DNA of 64,000 bases from a virus, in IMG/VR virus record IMGVR_UViG_3300042306_000227, positions 9,268 through 73,267 of that record. One strand, 5' to 3'. The notes beneath the pieces are model-generated. The model saw nothing but the letters and a program-made list of their open reading frames with translations, did not search any database and was not told the origin of the DNA. This document shows positions 8,069-48,503 of the stretch, in pieces. The first letter of the stretch is position 1, and each line of letters opens with the position of its first letter. Both the position numbers and the translations under genes were made by a program.

Positions 8069-9418
8069 ATGGCTATTAATCAACCAGCTGGTGTACAGCT
8101 AACAAATGGCGTAGGTCGCCAGTTTGTAAGTGACTTGTCACTTTTGAAGCCTCAATATTTTGAAAAATTTGTTGAGAAGTATGGCAACCAAAACTACACT
8201 CAATTATTAGAGATGGTAGGTTTGAAAGCAGTAGTTCCTTCTCGTGAATTTTTCCACTTTGAGTCTTACGGTAAATTGCATTCTTCTGCAAAGATTACTG
8301 CATCTACCACTACTTCTGTTACTAACACAGGAGTAACTGTAACTTTAACTGCAGGTTCTCACTACAACAGTGGTGCTCAATCTCCTATTCGTGTAGGTGA
8401 GGTTGTTGAAGCTGCTAGCTCTGGAGTTCAGTACAAAATTACAGCAGTAAACAAAGGTACTTCAGGTGCACACACTGCAACTATCGTTCCTTTAAAGAAT
8501 GCAAGTTCTACTTTGGCTGCAGGTGAAGTTTTATTGTTCCGTGGTGTTACAGAAGCTGGTGAAGCATCTGATGCTGCAGATACAATTGCAAACTTAACTG
8601 AGAAGAAGCTTTTCACAACAACTGAAATTCGTGAAGATTTCAAAATCACTGACCGTGCTAAGATTGAAGAAATTTACTTGGATTTCCCAGGTGGTTCTTT
8701 CTACACTTACAAAGGTTTAGATGAGGCTGTAAGACGTTTCATGAATAACAAAGAGTTCAAGTTAATCTTCGGTTCTGATGCTAATAACATCGCAGGTACT
8801 GTAGGTTCTAAAGGTTTAATTCCTCAAATTGAAGCTGATGGCCAAACTTATCAATATGATACAGTTGGTAACACTGCAGGTTTCGGTATTGAAGATTTCC
8901 ATAACTTAGTTCGTCAGATTGATTTCAATGGTGGTGCTCAAGAATACCATTTCTTAATGGATTCTTACTTGAGAACTGCAGTTGATGATTCTTTATTTGC
9001 TAAGTATACTAATGGTGCTATCCAATGGGCTTCTGTTGGTGGTTCTCAGGATGTAGCTATCAAATACGGTTTTGATTCAATCAAGATTGATGGTGTTACT
9101 TTCCACTTGAAGAAATACTTACCATTCAACGCAGAAGCTGTTTACGGACAAGCTTTAGCTAACAATGCTAACAAGTATGACTTCTTCGGTGCGTTAATTC
9201 CAATGAAAGATGGTCGTGATGCTCAAACTGGTGACAAAATCCCTGCTTTACGTGTAGTATGCAATGAGGTTGAAGCTGGTAAAGAAATCAAGGTTTGGGA
9301 AACTGGTGCTTTGGCTAAGGTTCCTACATCTAGCAAAATGGAGTTAAATGTACACCACATGGGTTATTGCGGATTACAAATGTTCGCAGCTAACCAATTC
9401 TTAGTAGTTAAGAAGTAG
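8069..9418 (+). CDS. Major capsid protein
   Basis: 449 aa after the scaffold; strongly biased codons (GGT, CGT, TTC, AAC); own promoter and terminator; GSKGLIPQI segment typical of HK97-fold capsids. Confidence 0.88.
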   Translation: MAINQPAGVQLTNGVGRQFVSDLSLLKPQYFEKFVEKYGNQNYTQLLEMVGLKAVVPSREFFHFESYGKLHSSAKITASTTTSVTNTGVTVTLTAGSHYNSGAQSPIRVGEVVEAASSGVQYKITAVNKGTSGAHTATIVPLKNASSTLAAGEVLLFRGVTEAGEASDAADTIANLTEKKLFTTTEIREDFKITDRAKIEEIYLDFPGGSFYTYKGLDEAVRRFMNNKEFKLIFGSDANNIAGTVGSKGLIPQIEADGQTYQYDTVGNTAGFGIEDFHNLVRQIDFNGGAQEYHFLMDSYLRTAVDDSLFAKYTNGAIQWASVGGSQDVAIKYGFDSIKIDGVTFHLKKYLPFNAEAVYGQALANNANKYDFFGALIPMKDGRDAQTGDKIPALRVVCNEVEAGKEIKVWETGALAKVPTSSKMELNVHHMGYCGLQMFAANQFLVVKK

Positions 9419-32700: not shown

Positions 32701-32816
32701 AAAGTATTGAAAGTTATGGTTTAGCTTGGGCATCAATTTTAGTAAAGGCGATGCAAGAACAACAAGACCTAATAACTGAACTAACAGAAAAAGTAAACGC
32801 ATTAGAGAATAAATAA
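29787..32816 (+). CDS. Tail fibre with C-terminal intramolecular chaperone (Peptidase S74)
   Basis: SDRRIKSNI..GFIAQEL..LVKAMQEQ; ERIRIT repeats. Confidence 0.85.
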   Translation: MSKRFLSGINVTGSAALNTVADAGSNTDKFLVLDSSNVVSYRTAAELYADLGIGSLPSGYTSTLKHEVKAGQTISKGQAVYVSSSDGTNMIISKASNVSEATSSKTMGLLETSLSTNGKGNVITEGLLAGLNTNGATAGDPVWLGVDGALIFGLANKPYAPAHLVFIGIVTRANANNGEIFVKVQNGFELKEIHDIDLITTTPIDGHILGYNGTLWVNKTIAGWLGYTPANDASVVKLSGAQTVGGLKTFSASIIANIGVLLKNGAVSALNGYTAIGGSSSNGIEIVFSPGGSTQSLLFQTSAAYSYTFPTATGTIALTSDLNSYVPNTRTLTINGTTYDLSANRSWTISANQNARTEYEFTTNGSTATYTATYSVGQVDVFYNGSKLSSAEFTATNGTSVTLAFTPPSGQVVEVVAWETGGGISNSRTLTINGTAYDLSANRSWTIDNASLGAQPQLNGTGFVKVSGTTVSYDNSTYLTTSSALSTYMPLSGGIFTGTTRMDGSGGTTPSITMIFNSGINRLLAPLLRLYGATNETSNYVELFGSLATQNRTIQLPDASGTIALTSNLSSYLPLSGGTLTGALSGTSATFSSTVTGSRFNSGGAGYRITAFGTLSQTVSGEMTILGHNVVADQSAANTVTVLNGGWYSSMIKMYYNEGITFHTSETVFSANAIYPMASTERIRITNGGTLGIATSSPIGGVFKLQVGDGSADTRAIIVSNQVYQLGFRNGAGSPVFYEGSDTSGNKIFSNNAGSELMRITTNGHFCIGTISPVSLGGSLGLTMGTTTSGRNIVLYSSSNGNNGLIQFIDLNGNDGLQIGSSTVDSYFYSYRDKPMEFFTNGTKRVTIQGDGQTRFQSSIILTNGQINSLGTGGGGQPMYLNFAGNGAVYAGSSYAVLYAGSDRRIKSNIENAEPTLNKILGLTPRTFKYKERPEFTNYGFIAQELEEIMPELVKTSEGITICNGEEIVNQKSIESYGLAWASILVKAMQEQQDLITELTEKVNALENK

Positions 32817-32831
32817 TAATAACTTTGTATA

Positions 32832-35501
32832 ATGGGTAAGACAAAAGATTTAGGACACTTAGCACACATAGTAGTATACGATGCAGAAAACCATATAACA
32901 GTTCCTGCTGGAATTACTATGCATACAAATCAGCTAGTAGCATCCCAAGCATGGGTAACTACAGCTTTGGGTTCTTATGCATTGTCATCTGCTCTAGGTT
33001 CATATGTGCCTACATCTAGGACTATAACAATAAATGGTACAACATTTGATTTAAGCGCTAATAGAAGCTGGGATATAACTTCAATGATATATCCTGCTGC
33101 TGGTATTGCTTTGTCTACAGGTACAGGATGGGGTACTTCTATAACCAATAACTCAGGTAACTGGAATACAGCTTTTGGATGGGGTAATCACGCTTCAGCG
33201 GGGTACTTGACAGGAATAACTTCTACTCAAGTAACGACAGCTTTAGGGTTTACTCCTGTAACAAATGCTAGAACTATTACAATTAATGGGACGGCATATG
33301 ATTTGAGTACAGACAGGAGTTGGACTGTAAGTGGAACAGATAGTACTAAACTCCCCTTAGCTGGTGGCACAATGACTGGAAGTATTGAAATGGCTACTTC
33401 TGGAACTAGTTATATTAGAATGGGTAGATTTCCTAATTCAACATCAAATGGCGGTGAGGCTTGGATAGGTAGAGCTTCTGACAGAAGTGCTGGTACTATG
33501 ACTGTTCAATTAGGTTCTGCAAATAGTTCATTTTTTGAAGTAGTTGATTATGGTTGGACTACAGTTACTTTAAAAGTAGGAATGAATGATTTTTCTTATA
33601 AGGGGAATGCTGTAATTCACGCTGGTAATATTGGTTCTCAATCAGTATCAACTGCAAGTGCTGCATCTAGTGCAACCTTTTTAACACAAGCTAATGCTAC
33701 ATGGGGAGCTAGACTACAAATAGGGGGTAATGGTGACCCAGGAGCTATTGCTAATATAGCTGTTGTTCAAGCTACAGATGGTAATTTACACATGGATAGC
33801 GGTACTGGCAAATCCATGTATTTAAATTATTATCGTAATGGAGTAATATATTTAAATGGAGCTACTTATTATATTAGTTCTAATGGAGCTAATTATAATG
33901 GAACAGCTGCGAATGCAGGTAATGCTGATACACTGGATGGATATCATGGTTCAAATTATCCTGGTAAAAATGGCAATACTTATTATCAAGTAGAAACATG
34001 GCTTCAATTAACAGGAGTTCATGGATTATACTGCCCTTCTGTAAATAATGCTCACTTATACCCAAATGATGCTTCTTATGGAGCTTGGAGAATATCAGGA
34101 ACTAGAAATGGATGGAATGGTATTCATTTTGGAGGTGGTAATGGCATGACTCTAATGATGAATGAAACAGAGTTTGGATTTCATAGAGAAGGTATTGGAT
34201 GGTCAGCTAGATTTACAAGCGGTACTGGTCATTTTAATATATCAGGTAGTGCAGCAAGTGCTAGTAGCGCTAGCTCAGCTACTTCTGCGGAATATTTCCC
34301 AACAGCATATGTTGGAGGTCAGCAAACTAATCCTCAAGTTTATTTTAATAATGGAATTGGCTTAAAGGCTGCAATGACAGGTGCTTGGTCTGTATGGTCT
34401 GATACATTATGGGTTAATGGATATTCTGGTGGTGATGTCCCTTGGATGTGCGCACTTCACTTTTTAAGAAATAGTGAACCAAGATTTGCTATTAGTGCGC
34501 AACAAAGGCAAAGTACAAGTTATGGCTCTTTTTATGAAGTAATTACATCTTATAATATTGCATCTCAAACAGTTGCTAATTTATCAGGATTTAATAAGAG
34601 TGAACCAACATTTGCAAATGTGTATAATACTGGATGGTTTAGAAACTATGCGGATAGTGGATTATATAACCAAGACTATGGATGTCATTTGGTTAGAAAC
34701 GGTCAATCATCTCATGGTGCTTGGTCTATTTTTGGATATACTAAAGCTGGGTATATTGGTATGAACTTAAGAGACCCTCAGACTTACAATAATAACCTGA
34801 TGTACGAGAATGGCAACGGAGGCATGTATACAGAAAATGCAAACGGTTGGCAATGGTATTATAACAGAGGTTCAAACTGTTTAGGTCTTGGAGGCTCTAC
34901 TACATACAACTGGGTTAGAGCTGTTGTAAATGGTAAACTTAAAATTGAATCTGATTCTATCCATACAGGATGGGCATATTTTGATAGCAATCTTCAACTT
35001 GCTGGTGGTGGTAATATTCTTTACAACGAATATAATCTTTGGTATGTATGGAGAAACTGGGGGGGATGGGGTGGAGAATGGATTAATCGTAATGGTGGTG
35101 ATATGATTATGAACCTATATGCTGTTTATGCAGTGACAGGTAGCGTATCGGATATTAGGTACAAAAAAGATATTACACCTTTATCGTATGGATTGAATGA
35201 AATCATGCAAATGAATCCGATTAAGTATCATTACAACTTACCTAAAGAATCAATGTTAGCTAACGACCCTGATTACTTCTTAGGATTTTCTGCACAAGAA
35301 ATGCAAAATATTATTCCAGAAGCTGTTCACGAAAAGATGGGAGATTCATCAGAGACTATGACTGGCATGCTTGCAATCACTATGGATGAGATAATACCTG
35401 TATTAGTGAATGGCATAAAAGAGCAACAAGTAATGATACGCAACCAAAATAATAAAATCAATAAACTAGAAGCACTAGTAAACCAACTATTAAATAATTA
35501 A
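32832..35501 (+). CDS. Tail fibre with C-terminal S74 chaperone
   Basis: SDIRYKKDI..GFSAQEM..LVNGIKEQ; leaderless promoter 32820-27. Confidence 0.85.
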   Translation: MGKTKDLGHLAHIVVYDAENHITVPAGITMHTNQLVASQAWVTTALGSYALSSALGSYVPTSRTITINGTTFDLSANRSWDITSMIYPAAGIALSTGTGWGTSITNNSGNWNTAFGWGNHASAGYLTGITSTQVTTALGFTPVTNARTITINGTAYDLSTDRSWTVSGTDSTKLPLAGGTMTGSIEMATSGTSYIRMGRFPNSTSNGGEAWIGRASDRSAGTMTVQLGSANSSFFEVVDYGWTTVTLKVGMNDFSYKGNAVIHAGNIGSQSVSTASAASSATFLTQANATWGARLQIGGNGDPGAIANIAVVQATDGNLHMDSGTGKSMYLNYYRNGVIYLNGATYYISSNGANYNGTAANAGNADTLDGYHGSNYPGKNGNTYYQVETWLQLTGVHGLYCPSVNNAHLYPNDASYGAWRISGTRNGWNGIHFGGGNGMTLMMNETEFGFHREGIGWSARFTSGTGHFNISGSAASASSASSATSAEYFPTAYVGGQQTNPQVYFNNGIGLKAAMTGAWSVWSDTLWVNGYSGGDVPWMCALHFLRNSEPRFAISAQQRQSTSYGSFYEVITSYNIASQTVANLSGFNKSEPTFANVYNTGWFRNYADSGLYNQDYGCHLVRNGQSSHGAWSIFGYTKAGYIGMNLRDPQTYNNNLMYENGNGGMYTENANGWQWYYNRGSNCLGLGGSTTYNWVRAVVNGKLKIESDSIHTGWAYFDSNLQLAGGGNILYNEYNLWYVWRNWGGWGGEWINRNGGDMIMNLYAVYAVTGSVSDIRYKKDITPLSYGLNEIMQMNPIKYHYNLPKESMLANDPDYFLGFSAQEMQNIIPEAVHEKMGDSSETMTGMLAITMDEIIPVLVNGIKEQQVMIRNQNNKINKLEALVNQLLNN

Positions 35502-35503
35502 TT

Positions 35504-35977
35504 ATGGCATACAAAATAAACAAAGAAATAGTAACATCTAAGGGTGTTACATCTGAGGCTTACGTAAGAATATCTAAGTATGAAATTGATAAAGCTGGTG
35601 ATGCTAGCTTTAAGATTGAAGTATTTTTAAATCAAGAATCTTCTACAACAGTAGATGGTGGATTGTTTAATCCTGCTTCTGCAACAATTGCAGATATAGG
35701 CCCTTATGTTGTAGTACCTCTTAAAAAAACTATACAAGTAGCTGTGCCAAATAAAAGAACAGAAGTGGTAGATGTCCCAGAAGAACTAGACGAGGAGGGT
35801 AATGTAATTAAGATGGCTACAAAACAATACGTTGAATTTGAAGGGGAAGATTTGGTTGATAGAACTGTACCTGATTTAACTCCTGTAGAAAATGGAACTG
35901 TTTTTGAGTTTGGTTATGCTAAATTAAGAGATGTATTAGTATCTTTGTACGGAGAGGAAAATATTGAAATTGTATAA
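35504..35977 (+). CDS. Putative fibre assembly/chaperone protein, paralogue A
   Basis: TSEAYVRI..VPDLTP..FEFGYAKL shared with the next gene. Confidence 0.55.
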   Translation: MAYKINKEIVTSKGVTSEAYVRISKYEIDKAGDASFKIEVFLNQESSTTVDGGLFNPASATIADIGPYVVVPLKKTIQVAVPNKRTEVVDVPEELDEEGNVIKMATKQYVEFEGEDLVDRTVPDLTPVENGTVFEFGYAKLRDVLVSLYGEENIEIV

Positions 35978-35995
35978 TATTTAAATAAACAAATA

Positions 35996-36481
35996 ATGGC
36001 ATTAAAAATCACAACACAGATTGGTACAGACAAAGGTATCACATCTGAGGCTTACGTAAGAATCGCAGACTATCAAGTATCTAAGTACGGTAGTGCTAGC
36101 TTTAGAATTGAATTATTCCAAACTCAGGCTGACTCAGTAGTTACTAATGGTATGATGTATCCGACCCCTTCTACTGGCGGCCAGGCTCGTAACCAACAAG
36201 TAGGTGATAACCTATGGGTTGCTATGACTAAAGAAGTAGAAGCTACAAGAACAGTACAAAGAAATGTAGAAGTAGTAACAGACGCTGTTTTAGATTCAGA
36301 GGGAGAGGTTATAACTCCTGCAAGTTCTACTTGGGAAATGCAAGATGTGGAAGAAACATACACAGCTACAGTTCCTGACTTGACTCCTTTAGAAGACGAG
36401 ACTATCTTTGAATTCGGCTATGCTAAGCTTAAAGATAAATTAGTAGGATTATTTGGAGCTGAGAACGTAGTAGATTGTTAG
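35996..36481 (+). CDS. Putative fibre assembly/chaperone protein, paralogue B
   Basis: Paralogue of 35504-35977; 23-nt identical DNA block. Confidence 0.55.
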   Translation: MALKITTQIGTDKGITSEAYVRIADYQVSKYGSASFRIELFQTQADSVVTNGMMYPTPSTGGQARNQQVGDNLWVAMTKEVEATRTVQRNVEVVTDAVLDSEGEVITPASSTWEMQDVEETYTATVPDLTPLEDETIFEFGYAKLKDKLVGLFGAENVVDC

Positions 36482-36504
36482 TATCTTTGCTTAAATAGTA
36501 AGCA

Positions 36505-39219
36505 ATGAGTTTAAAAGCAATAGATACTGGTTTTCTCAGGAATTTAGTTTCATACGATAATATAGGTAACATTTCGTTACCTGCTAGTTTGTCTATTTTT
36601 GTCAATAAAGAAGTAGCTACAAAAGAATACGTAGACGCTCAGAATAGTGGTCAGGTTCTACAATCTAGAACTTTGACTATTAATGGGGTTACTTACGACC
36701 TTTCAGCAAATAGAAGTTGGACTATAGATTCTATGGTATATCCGTCAGCAGGTATCGCTTTATCAAGTGGTACTGGCTGGGGAGCTTCTATTACAAATAA
36801 TTCAGCAAATTGGAATACTGCGTTTGGATGGGGTAATCATGCTTTAGCTGGATACCTTACATCATTTACAGAGACAGACCCCACAGTCCCATCTCATGTA
36901 AAGGCTATTACTACAACTAAGATAAGCGATTGGGATGCTGCATTTGGATGGGGGAACCATGCATCTGCAGGTTATGAAATTGCGTCTAACAAATCAAATA
37001 ATGCTGCTTTAGGAAACTCTAGTACGTTATATCCAACGCAAGCAGCAGTAAAATCTTATGTTGATTCTGCTGTGACTGGTGGAGTAAACATACAAGGTGA
37101 TTGGAATGCAAATACCAATACTCCTAATATATCAGGCACTACTACTACTGGATTTACATGGAGGGTTTCCGTAGCTGGTTCAACTAATTTAGGTGGAATT
37201 ACTACTTGGAATGTTAATGACTTAGCTGTTAAAACAGCAGCTGGTTGGATTAAAATTGATAATAGTTCATCTGTTATTTCTGTATATGGTAGACAAGGTG
37301 TTGTTGTAGCTAATGCTGGGGATTATAATACATCTCAAGTTACCGAAGCTGTTGGTAGTTTATACTTTACTACAGCTAGAGCTAGAGCGTCATTTAGCGC
37401 AGGCACAAATGTATCAATAGATGCAAATGGTGTAATTAGCTCAGTAAATACAACTTATAATAATTTTACCAGAACGGTTGCAGGCTTAGTGCCAAACCCA
37501 GGAGGCTCTTCAACTACTCGTTATTTAAGAGAGGATGGTACATGGGTAATACCACCTGATACAATTGTAACATCATTAGCATGGACTAGCATTACTAGTA
37601 GACCAACTAAATTATCTGACTTTACAAATGACTTAGGAAACTATGGTTCATTTTTAACAGCATACACTGACACATTAGCTACTGTTACAAATAGAGGAAA
37701 TTCTACAGCACAAAATATAGTTTTTAGTAATGGAAGGAAGGGGCTTGTAGGTGTTTATGATGCTGCACAGACTCAAGCAATATTTGCTATGGGTGCTGCT
37801 TATGTTTTAGCAGATGGAGGTGCTTCAAATAATATAGGAAATCTTTACGGACTAGCTTGGTCATATAATCCAGACTACGGAGGCGCAGGTAATAATCCGC
37901 AATCAAAAGCAGGGTTAAATCATCAGTTATTGTTGATGCAAGCAGGTGTTACTACCGCAGCAATAGGTTCTGGTATATGGACAAGTGGAAATATATCTGC
38001 AGCTAATTTTAGTGGTTCACATAGTGGTACTTCTTCAGGAACAAATACAGGAGACCAAGTAAATATTAGTGGTAATGCTGCGACAGCGACGTCAGCTACA
38101 TCAGCTACAATATCAACTTTTTTGTCATCTCCTGATGGAGATAGATTAGCAGGCAGTAAATTACCTAATGGTACTGTAAGAGCAATTAGGTTTGATTTTG
38201 CAAATGCAAACTCTATTACAGGTGCAACAGGAAATTATGCAGGTGTAATGACTTATTCTCCTTGGGATGGTACTGTAGCTTCTACTGGAGACTCTTCATA
38301 TCAATTAGCATTTATTAATGAAACAGGTGTTAACGCAAGTGGAGCCCCTGGCCTTAGATTTAGAAATGGTATTGACTCAACTTGGAATGGTTGGACATCA
38401 ATAATAACATCTTCTAATATAGGTTCTTATACAGCAGGTGGTGTTGCTTGGGGTAATGTGTCTGGAAGACCAACGGCATTAAGTCAATTTACAAATGATT
38501 TAGGGAACTATGGAGGCTGGGTTGTTAGAAGTGGCGACAGCATGAGTGGTAGACTTACTATTAATAGTGGGGGGAATAATTTGCCATTGCATGTTCTTTC
38601 TGTAGAACCTTATATACAACTTCAGGCAACAGGAGAAACGAATTCTACATCTTTTAGAATGTATCCTACAGGTGGTTTTAATGCTTCAATAGGTAATTAC
38701 GCTACAGGGGAATTGTGCCTTGTTGCCGCAAACAGCGAGGCTGTCTTTATTAACAGCAATAGCATACGTGTAAATAAATATAGATTTAATGGGAATGGCA
38801 CATTATCTGGTAATGGATTAGTTGAAATTGTTGATATGGCTAATGTTGGAATGGCAACACAAGCAAATTCATATAGATGGTATAGTGCTAATGCTGCTAA
38901 TATATTAATGTCATTAAATACATCAGGACATCTTACTGCTAACGCATTCTTTGAAGCATCAGATATTAGATACAAAAATGTAACCGAGACTAATCCAGAT
39001 ATTAGTGGGCTTGGTATTGATGTGATTAAATTTACTAGACACGGAAGTGATATAGTAAGATATGGTTATTCTGCACAGCAAGTGCAATCAGTTATACCAG
39101 ATGCTGTAGAAGGTAAAGATGTACTAACTGTAAACTATATGGATGTTCATACTTTAAAGATTGCATCTTTAGAAAGAAGAGTTAAAGAATTAGAAGAAAG
39201 ACTAAAAAGCACATTATAA
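36505..39219 (+). CDS. Tail fibre with C-terminal S74 chaperone
   Basis: SDIRYKN..GYSAQQV; ETDPTV, WGNHASAGY and RYLREDGTW fibre motifs; promoter 36482-89. Confidence 0.85.
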   Translation: MSLKAIDTGFLRNLVSYDNIGNISLPASLSIFVNKEVATKEYVDAQNSGQVLQSRTLTINGVTYDLSANRSWTIDSMVYPSAGIALSSGTGWGASITNNSANWNTAFGWGNHALAGYLTSFTETDPTVPSHVKAITTTKISDWDAAFGWGNHASAGYEIASNKSNNAALGNSSTLYPTQAAVKSYVDSAVTGGVNIQGDWNANTNTPNISGTTTTGFTWRVSVAGSTNLGGITTWNVNDLAVKTAAGWIKIDNSSSVISVYGRQGVVVANAGDYNTSQVTEAVGSLYFTTARARASFSAGTNVSIDANGVISSVNTTYNNFTRTVAGLVPNPGGSSTTRYLREDGTWVIPPDTIVTSLAWTSITSRPTKLSDFTNDLGNYGSFLTAYTDTLATVTNRGNSTAQNIVFSNGRKGLVGVYDAAQTQAIFAMGAAYVLADGGASNNIGNLYGLAWSYNPDYGGAGNNPQSKAGLNHQLLLMQAGVTTAAIGSGIWTSGNISAANFSGSHSGTSSGTNTGDQVNISGNAATATSATSATISTFLSSPDGDRLAGSKLPNGTVRAIRFDFANANSITGATGNYAGVMTYSPWDGTVASTGDSSYQLAFINETGVNASGAPGLRFRNGIDSTWNGWTSIITSSNIGSYTAGGVAWGNVSGRPTALSQFTNDLGNYGGWVVRSGDSMSGRLTINSGGNNLPLHVLSVEPYIQLQATGETNSTSFRMYPTGGFNASIGNYATGELCLVAANSEAVFINSNSIRVNKYRFNGNGTLSGNGLVEIVDMANVGMATQANSYRWYSANAANILMSLNTSGHLTANAFFEASDIRYKNVTETNPDISGLGIDVIKFTRHGSDIVRYGYSAQQVQSVIPDAVEGKDVLTVNYMDVHTLKIASLERRVKELEERLKSTL

Positions 39220-40830: not shown

Positions 40831-40857
40831 CGAGCCCTGTTTCTACAGGGCTTTTTT
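40831..40857 (+). terminator. Intrinsic terminator identical to the one at 9547-9573
   Basis: CGAGCCCTGTTTCTACAGGGCTTTTTT. Confidence 0.8.
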
Positions 40858-40876
40858 ATTTTAGTACCTTTGCATT

Positions 40877-41341
40877 ATGAAGTACTTATTATATTTATTG
40901 TTAATATTGAGCACATCTAGTATGGCTCAAGATGTGACTATATCTGTCCAAAACAGCATTAAATTAGGTGATTTGGCAGGTAATAGAAAAATAGAGTTTG
41001 GTGTAGCTAATATCATTGAAGAGATAATCCAAGAGAAAGGATACTCAATTAACCCAAAATCTAAAAATATTATCTTTGCCGAGTTGATTTATATGGATGT
41101 AGTGAAGACTAAAAGCAATCTATCAGTATTCCATAAAGACAATACAGATGTCGTGATAAGAATCAAGGGGTATATTTCCAAAGACGGAAGTAAAAGCAAG
41201 CCAATCTTGGTAGAAGGTAGCGCATCCGAGGTGTCAACATCAACAATACTTGTCGGAACAGACGGCAAGTTCAATCAACAAAATTTAACAACTGCAATAA
41301 AAAAGGCTTGCTATGAACTTATTGAGAAAATTAATCCTTAG
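40877..41341 (+). CDS. Exported protein, possibly CsgG/TolB-N-like alpha/beta fold
   Basis: Signal peptide ..SSMA/Q; FGVANIIEEII..FNQQNLTTAIKKAC parallels GLGVANISMEYL..FNQSTIGTATKKAL of 44400; leaderless promoter 40865-72. Confidence 0.55.
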   Translation: MKYLLYLLLILSTSSMAQDVTISVQNSIKLGDLAGNRKIEFGVANIIEEIIQEKGYSINPKSKNIIFAELIYMDVVKTKSNLSVFHKDNTDVVIRIKGYISKDGSKSKPILVEGSASEVSTSTILVGTDGKFNQQNLTTAIKKACYELIEKINP

Positions 41342-42959
41342 TCTTGTCACTATTTTTGGAATATTTGTGACAAATGCGCAGATTCCTACAATATATTTAG
41401 AAAAGTCTAATATAACTAAGAACATAAAGGACACGTCTATCTTAAAGGGAGACACTGTTGATATGGTGGTTATGTATAAGGAGGAACTATCTTCTACCAG
41501 AACGCTATACTTTGACTTTCAGTATAACTATAGAACATTTACTATATTAGGTGTAACTAGTTTTAGTGGAGATAGTAGTGCTATGCCTGCAAATGCTACA
41601 ATGAGTATTCAGAATAGCTTCCATCCAGGATTTACCTATCAAAGAACAGCTCAAAATACAACAACAAATGGTTCACAGAACTATAACTATGCTAACTATA
41701 CGTATTCACCAAGCAGCAATAATGCTATCCAAAGAATCTATACTACAGTTACTTCAAATAGTAATCTACGTAATGGGAAATATATCAGGATACGTATTAA
41801 GGTAAACGCAACTACAGCTGGAACAGCTTATGATAGTTTGTATATGAACTTTGTATCTGGCTGGAAATCAGATGGTACTTATATTGATACGTATATGCCT
41901 CTACCTAAAAGCACATTCATAACACTAGACGCTAATGCTAATACTTTGGTTACTGGTAATATATATAAAAGTCCTTCTGTTCAGACTAATATCAAGTTTA
42001 CCGACTCCGCTTCAGGAATATCTACTTTATTATATCCTGATGTAAATGGTGTTTTTAAAGCTTCTACGGAGCTTGCATCAAATAGAACATACAAAGTATC
42101 AGTTGGTATAGATAGTATCGCTAGTGTAGCTAAAAATGCTATTACGGTATCAGATGCTACAGCCGCCTTAAATGAGTTTGGTTCTGTTAACCTAAATGGC
42201 ACTTTTAATAAGACTAACCTAAAGACAGGTGCTGCTTGGCTAGCTGCTGATGCTAACTATAATGGTTCTTTTGATGCTGCCGACCCATACTTGATATTGG
42301 CTCATGTGGCCAATACGCTGACAATGGTTCCTAATATATACACATATAAAAGAGCTGATTTTAGTAAAGATACTTTACCAGTTCAGAATTTTATCTATTT
42401 CCGTACTACTACTGCCAATCAAGCATTAGATTTAAACTATCTAATTGCAGGTGATATTAATAGAAGCCATAGCTCACAGGTTGTAGCCACAGATGGAACA
42501 ATCCAATCATTTTCATTGGTTAATACTCCAATAGTAAAAAAAGCTGTTTTAGTAAGCCTAGAAAATGCTGTGATTGAGTCTGATAATATATCTATACCTA
42601 TGAATATCAATTCAGACGGATTAAGCTTATGCGGATTGCAGTTTGAGTTTGCATATGATGCAACTAAAATTCAGTTGCAAGAAATAAAGGCCAATACAAA
42701 CGCATCTTGGCTAAACTTCTATACAAACGAGAATGGGTATGTTAAGTTTGGTGGTATAGATAAGACTTTAAAAGAGCCTATATCTGGAACAACGATTCCA
42801 TTTACAATTAAATTCAAGGCATTAACGCCTGGTGTTGATATAAATACTAATGTATGGGTAACAGATAATATGGATGCGTCTGATAACAGAGGTAATCAAG
42901 TTGGTATTAAGTTAAACACTGCACAGATTCGTTTAATCGGTATAAATAATTTTAAATAA
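41313..42959 (+). CDS. Exported cohesin/dockerin-like protein
   Basis: Signal peptide ..TNA/Q; cohesin-like YFDFQYN and GLQFEFAYDATKIQL domains; EF-hand/dockerin-like ADANYNGSFDAAD. Confidence 0.65.
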   Translation: MNLLRKLILSLVTIFGIFVTNAQIPTIYLEKSNITKNIKDTSILKGDTVDMVVMYKEELSSTRTLYFDFQYNYRTFTILGVTSFSGDSSAMPANATMSIQNSFHPGFTYQRTAQNTTTNGSQNYNYANYTYSPSSNNAIQRIYTTVTSNSNLRNGKYIRIRIKVNATTAGTAYDSLYMNFVSGWKSDGTYIDTYMPLPKSTFITLDANANTLVTGNIYKSPSVQTNIKFTDSASGISTLLYPDVNGVFKASTELASNRTYKVSVGIDSIASVAKNAITVSDATAALNEFGSVNLNGTFNKTNLKTGAAWLAADANYNGSFDAADPYLILAHVANTLTMVPNIYTYKRADFSKDTLPVQNFIYFRTTTANQALDLNYLIAGDINRSHSSQVVATDGTIQSFSLVNTPIVKKAVLVSLENAVIESDNISIPMNINSDGLSLCGLQFEFAYDATKIQLQEIKANTNASWLNFYTNENGYVKFGGIDKTLKEPISGTTIPFTIKFKALTPGVDINTNVWVTDNMDASDNRGNQVGIKLNTAQIRLIGINNFK

Positions 42960-43312
42960 TGAAAAGAATCAGTATCATCACATGCTTAGTATTGCTTGTA
43001 GTATCATGCAAAAAAATACAATATTATCCAGAGCAACAAGCTAAAACACCTGAAAAACAGGGGTATGTTAATGTGTCTCCTGTACCTACATTAGGTCAAA
43101 TCACAATGAGTTTTAACCTACAACCATCTATCAAGTATAATGTTACAATCAAGGATATGAGCGGTAAAGTTTACAAATCTTATGGGGTAAGCTCAATAGA
43201 TGGCTTATTGGTAAAGCAGGATAACCTAACTGGATTAGCAAGTGGAACATATGACTTAATTTTGATGAATATAAATGGCTCAGAAACTAGAACCCCAATA
43301 ATTATAAAATAA
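42959..43312 (+). CDS. Lipoprotein consisting of a T9SS type A C-terminal sorting domain
   Basis: Lipobox LVVS/CKK; VSPVPT..IKDMSGKV..LTGLASGTYDLIL..PIIIK. Confidence 0.65.
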   Translation: MKRISIITCLVLLVVSCKKIQYYPEQQAKTPEKQGYVNVSPVPTLGQITMSFNLQPSIKYNVTIKDMSGKVYKSYGVSSIDGLLVKQDNLTGLASGTYDLILMNINGSETRTPIIIK

Positions 43313-43318
43313 AATACA

Positions 43319-43618
43319 ATGGCAGAAGAACAAGAAAGCACAGGTAGTTCTATGAAAAATGTTATCATAGGATTCATTAGCACAATCACTCTAGGAGTAG
43401 GTGGTTGGATTACAACAAAATTAACAGGAGGAGATGAGAAAGAAACCCCAACACAAACAGCGGCTCCAGTCATTAATATCAATCAAACGCAACAACAAGC
43501 TGCAGGAGGTGGTAAGACTGTTATCATTAAAGAAAAGGCGTCAGAACCTGCAAAGCCAGCTGCAACTCCTAAGAAAAAAGAGGGCGATGATTTTAAGGAA
43601 GAGGCTCCTAAATGGTAA
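43319..43618 (+). CDS. Single-pass membrane protein
   Basis: VIIGFISTITLGVGGWI followed by a disordered tail. Confidence 0.65.
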   Translation: MAEEQESTGSSMKNVIIGFISTITLGVGGWITTKLTGGDEKETPTQTAAPVININQTQQQAAGGGKTVIIKEKASEPAKPAATPKKKEGDDFKEEAPKW

Positions 43619-43621
43619 TAT

Positions 43622-43765
43622 ATGGCAAAGAAGACGTCAAAGCCTAAAGCGAAACGAAGTATTCGCTCAGGTGTTAAAAAGAGTAAATTAGTAAAACAAA
43701 ATCAAGAAGTAATATATAACGTATGGACAACGCTAAACAGCCAACAGGTTTTAAAGAACTTTTAA
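43622..43765 (+). CDS. Small basic protein (47 aa, not in ORF track)
   Basis: My translation: MAKKTSKPKAKRSIRSGVKKSKLVKQNQEVIYNV..; fills the gap between two genes. Confidence 0.45.
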   Translation: MAKKTSKPKAKRSIRSGVKKSKLVKQNQEVIYNVWTTLNSQQVLKNF

Positions 43766-44286
43766 ACGCAATGATGGAACGCAGATGGTATATTACCGCT
43801 GCTGTTCTTGGTGGGTTTATTTTAATTATCGCAGGGATATTTGTAGCAGTATCTAACAATGCTTCTATGGCAGGGGAATGGAAAGAGTTATTAATGTTAT
43901 TATTGGGTGCCTTTATTGGTAGCTATGGTAAGATTATAGACTACTGGTTCTCTGATACAGACAAGGATAAAATGTTAGTACAGAAGATGGATGAAGAAGA
44001 TGGTGTTTCTATGTCTCACACAAATGACATGAAAGAAACTAACAAGCCATTTGGCCCTACCATTCCTGATGCATTTGTTCAAGGAGCTGCTGCAGCTAGA
44101 GATTTAGCTGTTACAGAAAACAGACAAAACTTTGAACTTAAAAGAGACCAACAAGAACACGAACAAGAGATGGAGAAGTTAGAGTTTGAATACCAAGCAC
44201 ACAGACAATGTGAGCATGAGTGGGGAGATTCTGACGGAGACGGAGAACTTGAGTGTCAAAAGTGTGGATTATTGAAAGATAAATAA
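43723..44286 (+). CDS. Two-TM membrane protein with C-terminal Zn-ribbon-like tail
   Basis: Two hydrophobic helices, IIDYWFS motif (holin-like), CEHEW..CQKC. Confidence 0.65.
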   Translation: MDNAKQPTGFKELLNAMMERRWYITAAVLGGFILIIAGIFVAVSNNASMAGEWKELLMLLLGAFIGSYGKIIDYWFSDTDKDKMLVQKMDEEDGVSMSHTNDMKETNKPFGPTIPDAFVQGAAAARDLAVTENRQNFELKRDQQEHEQEMEKLEFEYQAHRQCEHEWGDSDGDGELECQKCGLLKDK

Positions 44287-44290
44287 AAAC

Positions 44291-44398
44291 ATAAGTCAGA
44301 AACCGCAAAATCTGACTCATATATCAATCAATCTTGAGCCGTTTATCAATCGTATTCGGCTCATTTTTGAGCGATAAGTATAATTTAAATGAGCGATA
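44291..44398. repeat. Palindrome cluster upstream of the csgG-like gene
   Basis: ATAAGTCAGA-N10-TCTGACTCAT; TGAGCCG-N15-CGGCTCA; GCTCA-N4-TGAGC; direct repeat TGAGCGATA x2. Confidence 0.6.
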
Positions 44399-44399
44399 T

Positions 44400-45122
44400 A
44401 TGAAAATTATAAAATCTTGTTGTACCATAATTATAATCCTTTGCTTTATTAATGGTCAAGCTCAGGTAGCGACAACTAAGACAGAGAACTATAAAGCTAG
44501 TTTTGAGACTAAGATTGACATCAGTCAGTACATGGACTATGATGGGCCGACTATACCAATTCAAATACTTAAATGCGGAATAAATGACGAAATGTATGAA
44601 ATGTATCCAGAACTTAAGGAAAAGAGGGTTGGTTTGGGCGTGGCAAACATCTCTATGGAGTACCTGGAAAACCTCAATCGCTTCACTTTCACGGAGGACA
44701 AGACTGAGATTAAGAATAGAATGGTTAAACAATTCCAGGCCTCTCAAGCAGGAATTTCTCAAGATAAGTTGGATGGAAGAGGAAAGATTAGACTAGCACA
44801 TTACTTTGTTGAGATTGAGTGCTATGATTATTCTGTTTCAGAAGATGAAGAGATTAGGGTAAAAGATGGCATTAAGGAGACTGTTGTCACAAGAATAGGA
44901 TTACAGGTAAGATTTACGGATGCGCAGACAGGTGAAATCATAGCTGCATCTGGATTGGGAGAAGCTAAAACTACACGAGAAGCAAGCCTATTGAATGACG
45001 AGAATCTTAGTGAAGTTAAATTTAATCAGTCAACGATAGGAACTGCAACAAAGAAAGCACTAGATATTGCGTGTGCTCGCATCCTATCAAGAATGATTAA
45101 AAAGAATGTATTCCCTAAATAA
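44400..45122 (+). CDS. csgG: CsgG/HfaB-like exported protein
   Basis: Signal peptide ..GQA/Q; GLGVANI..LENLNRFTFTE..IGLQVRFTDAQTGEIIAASG CsgG-family pattern; start moved to ATG 44400. Confidence 0.65.
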   Translation: MKIIKSCCTIIIILCFINGQAQVATTKTENYKASFETKIDISQYMDYDGPTIPIQILKCGINDEMYEMYPELKEKRVGLGVANISMEYLENLNRFTFTEDKTEIKNRMVKQFQASQAGISQDKLDGRGKIRLAHYFVEIECYDYSVSEDEEIRVKDGIKETVVTRIGLQVRFTDAQTGEIIAASGLGEAKTTREASLLNDENLSEVKFNQSTIGTATKKALDIACARILSRMIKKNVFPK

Positions 45123-46344
45123 AACACTTTTTCGTACGATATTCTGTACACTTTTGACACTTTCATTGACGAGTGCAAAAGCGCAGATACTTACAAGTAC
45201 ATTTATAGACCCATGTAGCAAGAAGGTCACAGTCTTTGTAGTGCCAATTCAAGGTACTACAATTGTGTTTATGGGTAAGTCTAAATACATAACAGCTCAG
45301 GATGTAAAGTCAGGTGCTTTAATGACTTGGGTAAATCAAGTATACGCAGAGTATTCAGCGCCATGCCCTGTTACACAACTTACTCAACAATTAACACAGC
45401 AAACGGTAACAAATTCAGTTTCAGCAGCAGTAAGTTCAGCAGCATCAAGTGCCGCTGCGAGTGCTGCTAGCAGTGTAAGTGTTCCAACTCCTGCTCCTGC
45501 TCCTGCGCCATCTTCTGCACCTTCTAGCCAACCAACTTCCTCTCAGAGTGATGGTAGCTCTAGCTCTAGCTCGTCTCAGAATGATGGTAGTTCTAGCGAA
45601 AGCAGTTCTGAGTCCTCTGAAAGTAAATCTGAGAGTAAATCCGAGGATAAAAAAGAAGAAAAGAAAGAAGAGAAGAAAGAGGAAAAGAAAAAGTCTTCCG
45701 CAAAGGCAGGACAAACCCCATTGATTTTTTCGTCTGATTTGAGTGCGGTTCAGCAGTTTCAAGGTGACTTTAATTTAATGGCAAATTTAGGCGTTTCTAG
45801 AGCATCTATGGCAGGAGACGTGTCTTACGGCTCTACATTGACAATCTTCTCAAATTTAAGACAATTTGCCCTATCTACAAGGTATTCTAAGATGGATATT
45901 CAGAATGGGACTTTATGTGGCGTAGGGACAACTTCTTACACAATGGCATATAATGATGGAGGCATCATACATATACTAGGTAAATCATATGTAATGTCCC
46001 ATAAGTCATACATTTATGGCTATGCCTTGACTATTATTAATACATCTATCCCATTTGAGGCTGTAAAACAACAATTCTGGACTTCTTCTATAGTGTTATT
46101 TGGCATGAAGCCATACGTTTACAGCAAAAGATTGACTATAACACCAGAGGTTTTTTTAATGTCTAACCCACTGAGTTATACAAGTAAATCAAAGGATTTG
46201 ACATCTATGAGTCAATTAAGCTACATATTAGGCTCATCATTTGACATAGCATTGTCTAAGAGATTTAGACTTGCAACTAATATTAAATACATGGGGCCGC
46301 TTCATACAATTGGATTGCAGTTAGGAACAAAGTTTAACCTATAG
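45106..46344 (+). CDS. Exported protein with Ser/Glu linker and probable C-terminal outer-membrane beta-barrel
   Basis: Signal peptide ..AKA/Q; paired Cys N-domain; S/P/E/K low-complexity linker; alternating beta strands ending IGLQLGTKFNL. Confidence 0.6.
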   Translation: MYSLNKTLFRTIFCTLLTLSLTSAKAQILTSTFIDPCSKKVTVFVVPIQGTTIVFMGKSKYITAQDVKSGALMTWVNQVYAEYSAPCPVTQLTQQLTQQTVTNSVSAAVSSAASSAAASAASSVSVPTPAPAPAPSSAPSSQPTSSQSDGSSSSSSSQNDGSSSESSSESSESKSESKSEDKKEEKKEEKKEEKKKSSAKAGQTPLIFSSDLSAVQQFQGDFNLMANLGVSRASMAGDVSYGSTLTIFSNLRQFALSTRYSKMDIQNGTLCGVGTTSYTMAYNDGGIIHILGKSYVMSHKSYIYGYALTIINTSIPFEAVKQQFWTSSIVLFGMKPYVYSKRLTITPEVFLMSNPLSYTSKSKDLTSMSQLSYILGSSFDIALSKRFRLATNIKYMGPLHTIGLQLGTKFNL

Positions 46345-46345
46345 T

Positions 46346-46565
46346 TGCATGAATTTTTCTGATTTTTCATGCACTGAATTAGAAATATATATCTAAAATG
46401 TAATTTATTTGTACCTATTTTATATTCTATTGCGTATAATTAGAAGTATATTTCCAATTTTATATGCGAAAGGGTATAATGTGTCATAAAAAGCACTTTT
46501 TGACTTATATATGTCCCATATAAGTCACATTGACTTACAAGCTCATGCAAATACACTATAAGTTT
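46346..46565. repeat. Array of overlapping ~20-40-bp imperfect palindromes
   Basis: TGCATGAA-N12-TTCATGCA; TGACTTATAT-N7-ATATAAGTCA; TTGCGTATAA..TTATATGCGA; AATTAGAArTATATwTCyAA x2. Confidence 0.7.
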
Positions 46566-46584: not shown

Positions 46585-47187
46585 ATGAAAAAGATATTAC
46601 AGGGTGCTGTATTGGTGATAGTTGTCGGTCTTATATTCTCAAAGATGACAGGGGTTAAAAACCCATTCTCGCCTAAGATAAAATATATTGCAGGTAAACC
46701 TTACGAGGTTATTAAGCATGAGATAGATACTGTTGACATTATTAAGACTAAGGTGATTACCAAACAAGGTAAGGACATCTACCACGATACGACAATCTTC
46801 GTGCAAGTCCCAATGAATGTAGACACATTAGAAATTATTAAAATGTATTTCGCCAAGAATGTATACAAGGATACCTTACGTTTACCTGACAGCTTAGGAT
46901 ATGTTGTACTATTGGACACCATTAGTAAGAATACGATTGAGTCTAGGATGTTCACAGCTAATGTGAAGCAAAGAACTATTAAAGAGACTACCATTGTTAA
47001 AGAGCTACCTAAGACCAAGTTATTTTGGGGTGTAGGAGCGTCATTTGACAAGGTAAACTTTGTAAACAACGTACAGGTAAATCTACTTTTAAATACAAAG
47101 TGTGATAAGCTATACAATGTAGGAGCAGGAATTGACATCAATAAGACACCGTTTGTTAACGCATCTATTTACTGGAAAATAAAATAA
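46585..47187 (+). CDS. Membrane-anchored lysis accessory (spanin-like) protein
   Basis: N-terminal TM, DT-rich middle, C-terminal beta strands ending YWKIK; first gene of the lysis unit (promoter 46573-80). Confidence 0.5.
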   Translation: MKKILQGAVLVIVVGLIFSKMTGVKNPFSPKIKYIAGKPYEVIKHEIDTVDIIKTKVITKQGKDIYHDTTIFVQVPMNVDTLEIIKMYFAKNVYKDTLRLPDSLGYVVLLDTISKNTIESRMFTANVKQRTIKETTIVKELPKTKLFWGVGASFDKVNFVNNVQVNLLLNTKCDKLYNVGAGIDINKTPFVNASIYWKIK

Positions 47188-47189: not shown

Positions 47190-47435
47190 ATGAAAGATTT
47201 TTTACTTAGAATGTTCAGCGATAAGTCTGACATAAATCAAAAGGCTGTGTTAGGATTTGTATCGTTTCTGTTAATGGCTATATATGCCCTAACAGATGTG
47301 GTTACAGGAGCAATAGGAATTACGTTTGTTATTGAGCCTATAGTATTTAACGGATTGATGTACACAGCTTTGACTATGTGTGGCATCACAGGTGTAGAGG
47401 CTGTATTTGGTAACAAGAACATAAAAGATAAATAA
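47190..47435 (+). CDS. Putative holin
   Basis: 81 aa, two TM helices, charged C-terminus, coupled to the endolysin. Confidence 0.6.
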   Translation: MKDFLLRMFSDKSDINQKAVLGFVSFLLMAIYALTDVVTGAIGITFVIEPIVFNGLMYTALTMCGITGVEAVFGNKNIKDK

Positions 47436-48034
47436 TGAATCTAGATAGATTAAAAGGTCACATCCCAGACTCAGTAATAAATCAGATACCAGAAGTGTCT
47501 ACTAAATTTGGTGTTAATACTCCACAGAGATTAGCTCATTTCTTAGCTCAAACAGGTCATGAAAGTGGTGGGTTCAGAGTAACAACAGAGAATTTAAACT
47601 ATAGCGCAAAAGGTTTGTGTGGTATTTTTAAGAAATACTTTACACCAGAAAGCGCACAAGAATATCAACGTAAGCCAGAAAAGATTGCTAATATTGTGTA
47701 CGCAAACAGAATGGGTAATGGTAATCAGGCTAGTGGAGATGGGTTTAAGTTTCGTGGTAGAGGTTATATCCAATTAACAGGTAAAACTAACTACCAAGCA
47801 TTTGATAAAACAGTAGAAGATAACATTGAAGCAAACCCTGATTTGGTTGCTACAAAATATCCTTTATTATCAGCTGCATGGTTTTGGAGTAAGAACGGAT
47901 TAAATGCAATAGCTGATACAGGTGCAGGAGAAGATGTGGTAACTAAAATTACAAAAAGGGTTAACGGAGGCACTATCGGTCTTGCTGATAGAATAGCTCA
48001 TTTTAAAGAATATTATAATCTATTAAAAGCTTAA
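47435..48034 (+). CDS. Endolysin, glycoside hydrolase family 19
   Basis: AHFLAQTGHESGGF..ENLNYS..FRGRGYIQLTGKTNY..TKRVNGGTIGLADR. Confidence 0.93.
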   Translation: MNLDRLKGHIPDSVINQIPEVSTKFGVNTPQRLAHFLAQTGHESGGFRVTTENLNYSAKGLCGIFKKYFTPESAQEYQRKPEKIANIVYANRMGNGNQASGDGFKFRGRGYIQLTGKTNYQAFDKTVEDNIEANPDLVATKYPLLSAAWFWSKNGLNAIADTGAGEDVVTKITKRVNGGTIGLADRIAHFKEYYNLLKA

Positions 48035-48036: not shown

Positions 48037-48222
48037 ATGAGTCAAGGAGTATCAGAAGCATCAGGAATGGTAGGTGTGCCAGCAACCATATTAACATGGC
48101 TTAATTACATGAACATAATGACTATGACCCCTGTGTTACAATTCTTAGTAACATTGTTATCCCTTGTGTGGCTAGTCATACAGATAGGAGGATGGGTTAG
48201 TAAAAAACTTAAAAAGAAGTAA
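48037..48222 (+). CDS. Small membrane protein (holin/antiholin-like)
   Basis: Hydrophobic 61 aa with basic tail. Confidence 0.55.
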   Translation: MSQGVSEASGMVGVPATILTWLNYMNIMTMTPVLQFLVTLLSLVWLVIQIGGWVSKKLKKK

Positions 48223-48503
48223 TGTCTAAAAATAAGTTAGCAGGTAAGCACCCAAGCTATAACGCTCTTAATTGGTCAAAGGAATCTATTGAACGTAAGA
48301 AAAAATACGACAAGAAATATCATGCAACCAAAGAAAGAAAGAAGTATAGAGCTGAGCTTAACAGAGCTAATAGAAAGGCAGGCACCTATGGTAATGGGGA
48401 TGGGAAAGATATGTCTCACACTAAAGGAGGCGCATTGACTAGAGAGAGTCAATCTAAGAATAGAGCAAGGAATGGCAGGAATGGACTTAGCTCTCGTAAG
48501 TAA
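48222..48503 (+). CDS. Small basic protein with degenerate HNH-like motif
   Basis: GDGKDMSH..SKNRARNG. Confidence 0.55.
   Translation: MSKNKLAGKHPSYNALNWSKESIERKKKYDKKYHATKERKKYRAELNRANRKAGTYGNGDGKDMSHTKGGALTRESQSKNRARNGRNGLSSRK

Follow-up and report, generated by a model that had tools for sequence, protein, structure and literature searches.

Why would a bacteriophage carry a set of genes whose products appear destined for every layer of its host's envelope? The question is raised by a 64,000-nucleotide (nt) stretch of DNA, hereafter the window, which makes up most of the 73-kb IMG/VR virus record IMGVR_UViG_3300042306_000227 (positions 9,268 to 73,267 of that record). Seven tightly packed genes on its + strand, here called g1 to g7 (the block or cassette, 40877-46344), lie at the far end of the structural arm, between tail-fibre genes and holin-like and endolysin genes. 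Neighbouring genes overlap or are at most 6 nt apart, except for a 113-nt gap 5' of g6. A previous interpretation made from the letters alone (the sequence-only reading) had described one tightly coupled block between tail and lysis genes, encoding four proteins with signal peptides followed by Gln, one lipoprotein and two inner-membrane proteins, and all of these were found (g1, g2, g6 and g7; g3; g4 and g5, respectively). It had also held the combination to be undescribed as a system; in agreement, full-text literature searches, with subscription journals and supplements outside their scope, returned no paper on it.

Here we report that the cassette recurs in a fixed order in diverse phages, is essentially absent from bacterial genomes and tracks the endolysin gene, the last of which is the main new result. 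We tentatively read the cassette as a late, phage-only envelope module coupled to lysis and release, and we place this reading, drawn mostly from predicted features, a little short of even. Its late timing, any physical complex among the products and the mechanism as a whole are matters that we infer.

Gene order and linkage to the endolysin

Scanning IMG/VR with g6 gave 492 pattern matches, and 487 of these stretches encode relatives of the protein; the best 80 of the 487 are 75-94% identical and sit on contigs of ~5.6 to 287 kb. We surveyed gene order in 92 IMG/VR loci, made up of these best 80 g6-anchored loci and 12 g1-anchored ones. The recurrent order was g1, one or two copies of g2, small lipoprotein gene(s), g4, g5, a small membrane protein gene of the type called g9 in the window or similar, g6, optional inserts and g7. 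Recurrence of this order across the fetched loci is far beyond chance; some contigs entered the set twice and many of the loci are related, and the counts given below are not independent events. Co-occurrence of the genes in other genomes, on which the sequence-only reading had staked its case, was thus borne out by the gene-neighbourhood survey.

Inserts in other cassettes encode a class-3 lipase, a GT2 glycosyltransferase, a metallophosphoesterase or a TonB-dependent-receptor-like protein. The last of these (CarboxypepD_reg, Plug, barrel), followed by a 400-amino-acid (aa) protein without family, was seen in L025 (10651-13131) and L059 (9869-11068). An extra exported family of ~280 aa stands between g6 and g7 in many cassettes (for example L059 12811-13674 and L063 8684-9532); its N-terminal region is rich in Trp, Gly and Asn, its C-terminus is barrel-like with F or K as the last residue, and no Pfam or NCBIfam family matched it.

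The cassette is restricted to phages and essentially absent from bacterial genomes. Among 185,579 species genomes, the g6 protein found one close relative, on a 2.7-kb contig of a metagenomic bin. This contig (L095 / G001:C299), from a bin labelled Thiobacillus, carries a 73%-identical g6 and is probably a phage fragment binned with the bacterium. When 301 genomes were sampled from the phylum of this bin, 24 had matches, 23 of them weak CsgG-family matches (67 bits or less) and one on a phage-like contig (275 bits). The nearest Atlas clusters of g6 and g5, among those listed, are 100% viral. Taken together, 487 IMG/VR stretches and a single close bacterial match constitute a virulent-phage signature. 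Window DNA was present in 20 of the 21 listed sequencing runs (19 studies of lake or fresh water), and no RNA run among those listed contained it. The phage is one of lake water, with hosts of the Flavobacterium type.

Cultured representatives are few. Searching 50,697 phage records with g6 returned only 4 records, all of the Flavobacterium phage immuto group, which is the only cultured phage group matched; a DNA-level search of the same records with the whole block gave no match. In Flavobacterium phage vB_FspM_immuto_2-6A (NC_055915; host Flavobacterium sp. LMO8) the corresponding genes are gp013-gp018; gp017 is 55.7% identical to g6, and the annotation of its neighbours names a C-type lectin protein, a cohesin protein and otherwise hypothetical proteins. 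Unlike the window, this 160-kb myovirus has a reduced cassette in which every core gene is annotated only as hypothetical, and both here and in other large phages the cassette is flanked by DNA-metabolism genes.

Linkage to lysis was found by anchoring on the endolysin instead. The window's GH19-type endolysin gene (47435-48034, +; phrog_181 endolysin E 4.3e-72, Pfam Glyco_hydro_19 E 2.1e-10) served to collect 80 loci of one endolysin family at 70% identity or more, 27 of them with at least 6 kb on both sides. In 18 of these 27 loci g6 lies within 9 kb of the endolysin, and a further locus (L237) adds g1-g5 running off the locus end. Several arrangements were observed. In the window's clade the order is cassette-g8-g9-endolysin, g8 and g9 being the first genes of the next unit; in a second arrangement it is g8-endolysin-g1...g7. 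The endolysin may also lie inside the cassette, either between g5 and g6 (L224, 8764-9600), where g5 directly precedes it, or between g6 and g7 (L223, 8517-9350). In 7 of the 8 cassette-free loci the endolysin is longer (275-280 aa) and its neighbours are unrelated genes. One locus without the cassette, L199, keeps the g9-g8-endolysin order of the window and encodes, after the endolysin, a transmembrane (TM) protein of 100 aa, a lipoprotein of 113 aa and a protein of 143 aa that bears a signal peptide and, at its C-terminus, a TM segment. By these predicted features, L199 would carry a spanin-like set in the slot of the cassette.

Unit boundaries, membrane proteins and a possible part in lysis

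How the block sits in the window bears on its timing. Terminase, portal, virion and tail-fibre genes occupy the + strand from 405 to 39219, three tail-fibre-like genes lying at 29787-39219 (+), and are followed by the block and then by lysis genes; recombination and replication genes (RusA, exonuclease, Erf, primase/helicase) run on the - strand from 48505. A terminator-like hairpin at 40832-40853 (+; 9-bp stem with 5 G-C pairs, then a T run) would close the upstream tail-fibre unit. Next comes TACCTTTG (40865-40872, +), 4 nt 5' of the g1 ATG (40877), which matches TAnnTTTG, the -7 promoter consensus of Bacteroidota. The proposal that the block has its own promoter therefore stands as far as the motif goes, and we infer that this motif acts as promoter of the block. 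Because they have their own TAnnTTTG start arrangement after a terminator-like hairpin, g1-g7 look like one unit. The same TAnnTTTG-N4-6-ATG arrangement is found ahead of the + strand genes at 405, 10618, 32832, 40877 and 46585, which suggests near-leaderless late transcripts. Another hairpin, after g7 (46346-46376), was rejected as a structured element, as its folding is no better than that of shuffled sequence (z -1.49). Elsewhere in the structural arm, 18790-26745 (+) is a single open reading frame (ORF) of 2651 aa for which PHROG gave no match at E up to 1e-5.

Downstream of the block, g8, g9, the GH19 endolysin and two small ORFs form a separate unit. It starts with g8 (46585-47187, +; 200 aa, N-terminal TM segment or signal anchor), with TAAATTTG 4 nt 5' of its ATG. 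The adjacent g9 (47190-47435, +) encodes a small membrane protein of 81 aa with two or three hydrophobic segments, holin-like in appearance, and in many other phages g9-type homologs lie inside the cassette, between g5 and g6. Similarly, g8 often adjoins g7 in other phages. We did not adopt g8 as a lysis gene, since homologs also lie directly 5' of the large terminase gene in other phages. These homologs (47-59% identical) stand between a 222-aa ORF and the large terminase (L141 8893-9537, L122 8983-9621 and similar loci), with a 1300-1970-aa protein with a cytidyltransferase-like N-terminus upstream. After the endolysin unit, a strongly basic 93-aa protein (48222-48503, +; phrog_6437 E 4.4e-24) is conserved in the window's clade.

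Two cassette genes encode inner-membrane proteins. The first, g4 (43319-43618, +), encodes a bitopic protein of 99 aa with one scored TM segment (residues 15-33), a low-complexity periplasmic tail without coiled coil and a C-terminal motif, KKKEGDEFKExxPxW, whose terminal Trp is invariant in 35 aligned sequences. It is followed by a very basic 47-aa ORF (43622-43765, +) that overlaps the start of g5 by 43 nt; its family has 24 members, in the same place in 24 loci, and it could be either a genuine small gene or sequence conserved out of frame. The second inner-membrane protein, g5 (43723-44286, +; 187 aa), has two TM segments, of which one passes the hydropathy cut-off and the other (~residues 55-68) was read from the alignment, and a charged tail. 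Across 23 sequences 37 columns are invariant, including those of GSYGKIIDY and SDxDKDKxLVQKxDEEDG; in the tail an acidic motif is invariant and the C-terminus carries a CxH...CxxC knuckle, and short forms (115-116 aa) retain just the two-TM core. The topology is probably N-in/C-in with a cytoplasmic tail, which would give g5 a holin-like build. No holin family matched g5, which at 187 aa is long for a holin, with a conserved core of ~95 aa. Its nearest 30 Atlas clusters all lack a Pfam family, and the three rows listed are viral.

If the predicted signals hold, each layer of the host envelope would receive cassette products. The inner membrane would take up g4 and g5; g1 and g6 would be soluble in the periplasm; the lipoprotein g3 would go to the outer membrane, into which g7 would insert as a barrel on a long flexible tether; and g2, a cohesin/lectin-type protein whose gene pairs one-to-one with that of the small lipoprotein, would be exported. 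The cassette could then handle the periplasmic and outer-membrane step of release, as a stand-in for spanins or an adjunct to them, in which the g3 lipoprotein and membrane-anchored g4 might pair to form a bridge and g5 and the g9-type proteins might set the timing in the manner of holins. Two-component spanins of the lambda Rz/Rz1 type consist of an outer-membrane lipoprotein and a coiled-coil i-spanin. As in these systems, a small lipoprotein gene, g3, adjoins bitopic g4 near holin-like and endolysin genes: the g3 lipobox ORF is directly 5' of g4, 6 nt apart, g4 has an N-terminal TM segment and the endolysin lies ~3.8 kb downstream. By a simple lipobox rule the lipobox of g3, VVSC, is the only one on the + strand of 36-49 kb, and there is no other spanin candidate near the endolysin. 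The position of the block on the structural, late arm, with a TAnnTTTG-N4-6-ATG arrangement like that of the tail-fibre and lysis units, points the same way. Unlike spanins, g3 is a 95-aa beta-sandwich instead of a short Pro-rich peptide, neither gene pair nor block matched a spanin PHROG, and five further conserved genes accompany the two.

Of the three functions proposed earlier, controlled release is the one that the context favours most, given that the cassette tracks the endolysin; the other two are superinfection exclusion and the surface display or aggregation of hosts. Several observations nonetheless weigh against a coupling to lysis. About 50 of the 80 g6-anchored loci have no GH19-family endolysin within 8 kb, other endolysin types having been checked only via families with 6 or more members. 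The flanks in large phages are DNA-metabolism genes, and in immuto the endolysin is ~6 kb away. The endolysin-anchored loci are related and belong to a single family, so their counts are not independent. The periplasmic part of g4 is of low complexity, unlike the coiled coil of known i-spanins. Finally, seven genes, lectin-type heads and a g6 conserved at 75-94% are not what known lysis proteins look like. A more specific version, in which the cassette would be an undescribed multi-protein machine of Bacteroidota phages that replaces spanins in the outer-membrane step of lysis and release, assembled from the CsgG-fold protein, the tethered barrel, the lipoprotein/inner-membrane pair and the holin-like proteins, with the swappable lectin-cohesin protein tuning it to the surface glycans of the host, appears rather improbable to us on the predicted features.

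The cohesin/lectin-type protein and its small lipoprotein

The strongest rival of a coupling to lysis is the surface display of swappable lectins, which we regard as possible but on the doubtful side. On this view an exchangeable, sugar-binding g2 would re-dress the surface of infected cells, with the small lipoprotein as its anchor and g6 and g7 as helpers, so as to mask receptors, for superinfection exclusion or to keep progeny from sticking to debris, or to aggregate hosts. In the window, g2 (41313-42959, +) encodes 548 aa with a signal peptide followed by Gln, and its residues 424-525 match Pfam Cohesin (PF00963) at 31.2 bits against a cut-off of 24.1. A second, N-terminal cohesin was considered and rejected, having no similarity to the C-terminal one (E 2.1). 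The dockerin half of the cohesin/dockerin combination seen in the sequence-only reading fared less well: it comes down to one canonical EF-hand-type loop, DANYNGSFDAAD, the second element, GDINRSHSS, being atypical, and Dockerin type I (PF00404) gave no Pfam match in window g2 and matched two of 28 relatives below cut-off (best E 0.0027).

Cohesin-dockerin assemblies are known in cellulosomal and non-cellulosomal forms. The g2 protein resembles them in its Pfam-passing cohesin, a 12-residue Ca-loop pattern (DxNxNGxxDxxD) and exchangeable heads. It is unlike them in having no enzymes, one clear dockerin loop and both elements in one chain, and the cassette as a whole differs in being phage-encoded and targeted to a diderm envelope. 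Domains found in the g2 family (n = 28) are Cohesin (16, E up to 0.01), Lectin_C (5), Por_Secre_tail (3), PA14 (2), Dockerin_1 (2) and GLEYA (1); judged by these matches, the family has swappable heads of predicted sugar-binding type. The true sorting domain of the type IX secretion system (T9SS) is clear in the three of 28 members concerned (best E 1.6e-7).

Three features of the cassette, namely variable heads, one-to-one pairing and a gradient of conservation, are better explained by surface display than by a part in lysis. Between g1 and g4, counts of g2 and small lipoprotein genes were 1:1 in 32, 2:2 in 22 and 1:0 in 11 of 65 loci; the combinations 2:1 and 1:2 did not occur. Evolution is fast in the predicted outer parts and slow in the inner ones: in the 66 loci whose g6 is less than 85% identical, the median identities to the window were 27% for g2, 35% for g7, 42% for g1, 49% for g4, 65% for g5 and 79% for g6, the most conserved cassette gene. 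The cassette also adjoins tail-fibre genes in the window. On the other side, no route across the outer membrane is recognised for window g2, which itself lacks a T9SS domain, or for g3, and g6 is probably no pore. Display leaves the link to the endolysin unexplained, though release at lysis could serve as the route. Moreover, the 11 loci of 65 without a small lipoprotein between g1 and g4 break the pairing, and the loci are not independent. Lysis and lectin display could also be one story, in which lectins released or exposed at lysis would coat debris.

The lipoprotein itself, g3 (42959-43312, +; 117 aa, lipobox VVSC), has a mature part resembling the beta-sandwich of T9SS type-A sorting domains. 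Bacteroidota, the host phylum, use the T9SS, and a cargo-less, lipid-anchored sorting domain might act as a decoy that occupies this system and blocks the export of adhesins and gliding proteins late in infection. The whole mature g3 aligns to the type-A sorting domain TIGR04183 in NCBIfam (profile 1-72 of 72, residues 39-117 of 117) at 23.6 bits, just above the cut-off of 23, and it falls below the Pfam cut-off (PF18962, 21.8 against 27), so that the two databases disagree on the T9SS sorting-domain lipoprotein named earlier. The domain stands alone on a lipoprotein, not at the C-terminus of a secreted cargo, and g3 is homologous to the paired small lipoproteins, present in two copies, of other cassettes (hhalign 97.9%, E 3.4e-13). 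The match is borderline, such beta-sandwiches are common, and a g3 profile searched against solved structures found no T9SS domain and nothing convincing, the best being an unrelated adhesin at E 0.03. A decoy would also leave g1, g4-g7 and the one-to-one pairing with g2 without a role, and we consider it quite unlikely.

The CsgG-fold protein, the barrel and what the cassette may mean

The protein that first suggested a secretion machine is g6 (44400-45122, +; 240 aa), a periplasmic protein of CsgG fold whose start was set at the ATG at 44400, where homologs also begin. Window g6 had no Pfam match at E up to 1, and no solved chain was matched by sequence. Homologs at E up to 0.001 numbered 5022 among 5472 candidates, with 216 representatives at the 50% identity level, and among the 120 matches listed all are unnamed or 'hypothetical' and lack a Pfam family. 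The family gave more than the single protein: PF03783 CsgG was matched by 21 of 41 full-length aligned members (best E 3.7e-23) and LpoB by 8, and the family profile found E. coli CsgG in the PDB at E 2.9e-4. At the level of profiles, this shows homology to the CsgG superfamily, not membership of the curli clade. The AlphaFold2 model of g6 (pLDDT 80.6) agrees, with 4uv2 (CsgG) as top Foldseek match (E 1.6e-7), the top 8 rows of a VIA alignment all CsgG (Z 10.7-12.6), followed by CT253, PelC, the FlgT/LPHT ring and LptE (Z 8.7-9.6), and the CsgG of an uncultured Caudovirales phage as best fold match in BFVD (E 2.2e-7). With E. coli CsgG (PDB 4uv2, 4uv3, 6l7a) g6 shares the core fold (VIA Z 12.6, root-mean-square deviation 3.6, 155 residues aligned) and, in the alignment, a Y-P motif in one loop, which presumably forms the constriction in CsgG.

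The CsgG-like pair of the sequence-only reading thus stands for g6; g1 is only weakly CsgG-like, as far as profiles tell. The small periplasmic alpha/beta protein encoded by g1 (40877-41341, +; 154 aa, signal peptide followed by Gln) has weak CsgG/LpoB/YajG-like features: hhalign matched its family to that of g6 at 78%, the 28 aligned columns lying around the helix motif (G)xGxxNxxxExL, and PF03923 Lipoprotein_16 was matched below cut-off by 17 of 26 family members (best E 4.2e-6). In some g1 relatives an N-terminal TM anchor replaces the signal peptide. Gln after the signal-peptide cleavage site is the Q-rule of Bacteroidota, and the predicted sites in the window follow it: SMA/QD in g1, TNA/QI in g2, GQA/QV in g6 and AKA/QI in g7.

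Does g6 form a pore? The claim that it is a CsgG-type secretion pore was not sustained. A canonical lipobox is absent from all 53 distinct phage g6 N-termini listed, where instead a site of signal-peptidase-I type precedes Q or, in three of them, N; most of the distant bacterial relatives do have a lipobox. Residues 145-165, SVSEDEEIRVKDGIKETVVTR, form a hairpin equivalent to TM1 of CsgG. In 59 sequences this hairpin (SVSEDEE...KDG...K) is conserved, with charges on both of its faces, and it is ~6 residues shorter than that of E. coli CsgG; the TM2 region is polar. Judged by sequence pattern only, g6 appears to lack the two amphipathic beta-hairpins (TM1, TM2) from which CsgG builds its membrane barrel. 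Since it lacks a lipobox and has a conserved, charged and shorter hairpin, phage g6 is probably no CsgG-type pore. It also differs from E. coli CsgG in having no lipid anchor and no CsgE, CsgF, CsgA or CsgB beside it, and in size: mature g6 has 218 residues and mature CsgG 262. In distant relatives the g6-type domain is fused to caspase (Peptidase_C14; P0210, P0224, P0232) or, after a long linker, to Ser/Thr kinase (P0250, P0263), and the CsgG-like domain is therefore a module of general use in the periplasm. Conservation within g6 peaks at residues 101-134 (98% on average over the columns), and this stretch overlaps residues 121-130, where the model is least confident; a site that binds a partner might show such a pattern.

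The last gene, g7 (45106-46344, +; 412 aa, signal peptide followed by Gln), encodes the expected beta-barrel. A small two-Cys N-terminal domain and a disordered linker of ~100 aa, A/S-rich and then E/K-rich, precede a C-terminal barrel ending in GxKxxL. In the AlphaFold2 model (mean pLDDT 68.1) the barrel has ~12-13 strands and scores ~68-91 per 10-residue block, and the linker and helices fall below 50. Foldseek placed FapF first (E 6.5e-6); this exporter of Pseudomonas amyloid has a 12-strand barrel, a plug helix, a disordered linker and an N-terminal coiled coil. A specifically FapF-like g7 was rejected after VIA ranked CymA (Z 18.7), EspP (17.7), NalP (17.1) and OmpG above FapF (14.1). On the model, g7 is a predicted barrel of 12-14 strands with an N-terminal tether and nothing more specific. 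The g7 family (37 members) gave only low-complexity noise against Pfam, and none of 61 homologs of the barrel region is named.

Curli-like (type VIII) or Fap-like secretion, in which g6, with or without the g7 barrel, would export an unfolded substrate encoded in or near the cassette, is accordingly a very unlikely alternative. What speaks for it are the fold matches of g6, all to CsgG among the best, the first Foldseek place of FapF and the precedent of phage csgG/csgF clusters. Curli-like clusters of this kind were reported in pelagimyophages (HTVC008M group) and the Methylophilales phage Melnitz as being of unknown function, with a role in lysis regulation proposed for that of Melnitz (PMC7029224, PMC9004378). 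Both kinds of cluster have a phage CsgG-fold gene in a small conserved set of exported proteins without amyloid subunit. The CsgG-fold gene is the only element common to them: the pelagimyophage and Melnitz proteins, as described, closely resemble proteobacterial CsgG, form a barrel when modelled and have CsgF as their partner. In contrast, our cassette has no CsgF, lipobox or amphipathic hairpins, its host phylum is Bacteroidota, and its partners are a cohesin/lectin protein, a sorting-domain lipoprotein, two inner-membrane proteins and a barrel. The features of g6 set out above and the VIA ranking of g7 argue against secretion, as does the lack of any Pfam, PHROG or NCBIfam match of cassette products to CsgA, CsgB, CsgE, CsgF or a Fap subunit. 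The earlier statement that the cassette holds no curli subunit or amyloid repeat agrees with this for subunits; as to repeats, none was noticed in the cassette proteins, on which no repeat search was run.

That the products are virion or assembly components of the tail-fibre region is barely credible: the block directly follows tail-fibre genes in the window's clade, but the proteins have Sec signal peptides, a lipobox and membrane anchors, the core genes have no clear PHROG match and no virion PHROG (g4, E 1.3e-4, g5, E 0.0093, and the low-complexity linker of g7, E 4.3e-4, weakly match unrelated or unnamed families), and in other phages the block lies among replication genes. Its place among DNA-metabolism genes in immuto and other large phages is why we do not regard the proteins as simply virion parts, in line with the sequence-only reading.

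Coupling to lysis and release, on which we settle tentatively, and surface display would carry different consequences. With ~5000 public homologs and 75-94% identity across very different phage genome sizes, g6 still has no name, Pfam family or PHROG; the cassette thus has the look of a major function, so far unexplained, of Bacteroidota phages in fresh water. Few flavobacterial phages are reported to have an annotated spanin (PMC8776804). If the cassette does serve lysis, it would explain how many Bacteroidota phages breach the outer membrane without a recognisable spanin; if it displays lectins, it would represent a new phage way of reshaping host surfaces. Either reading is directly testable, because the cultured pair of immuto and Flavobacterium sp. 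LMO8 carries the cassette.

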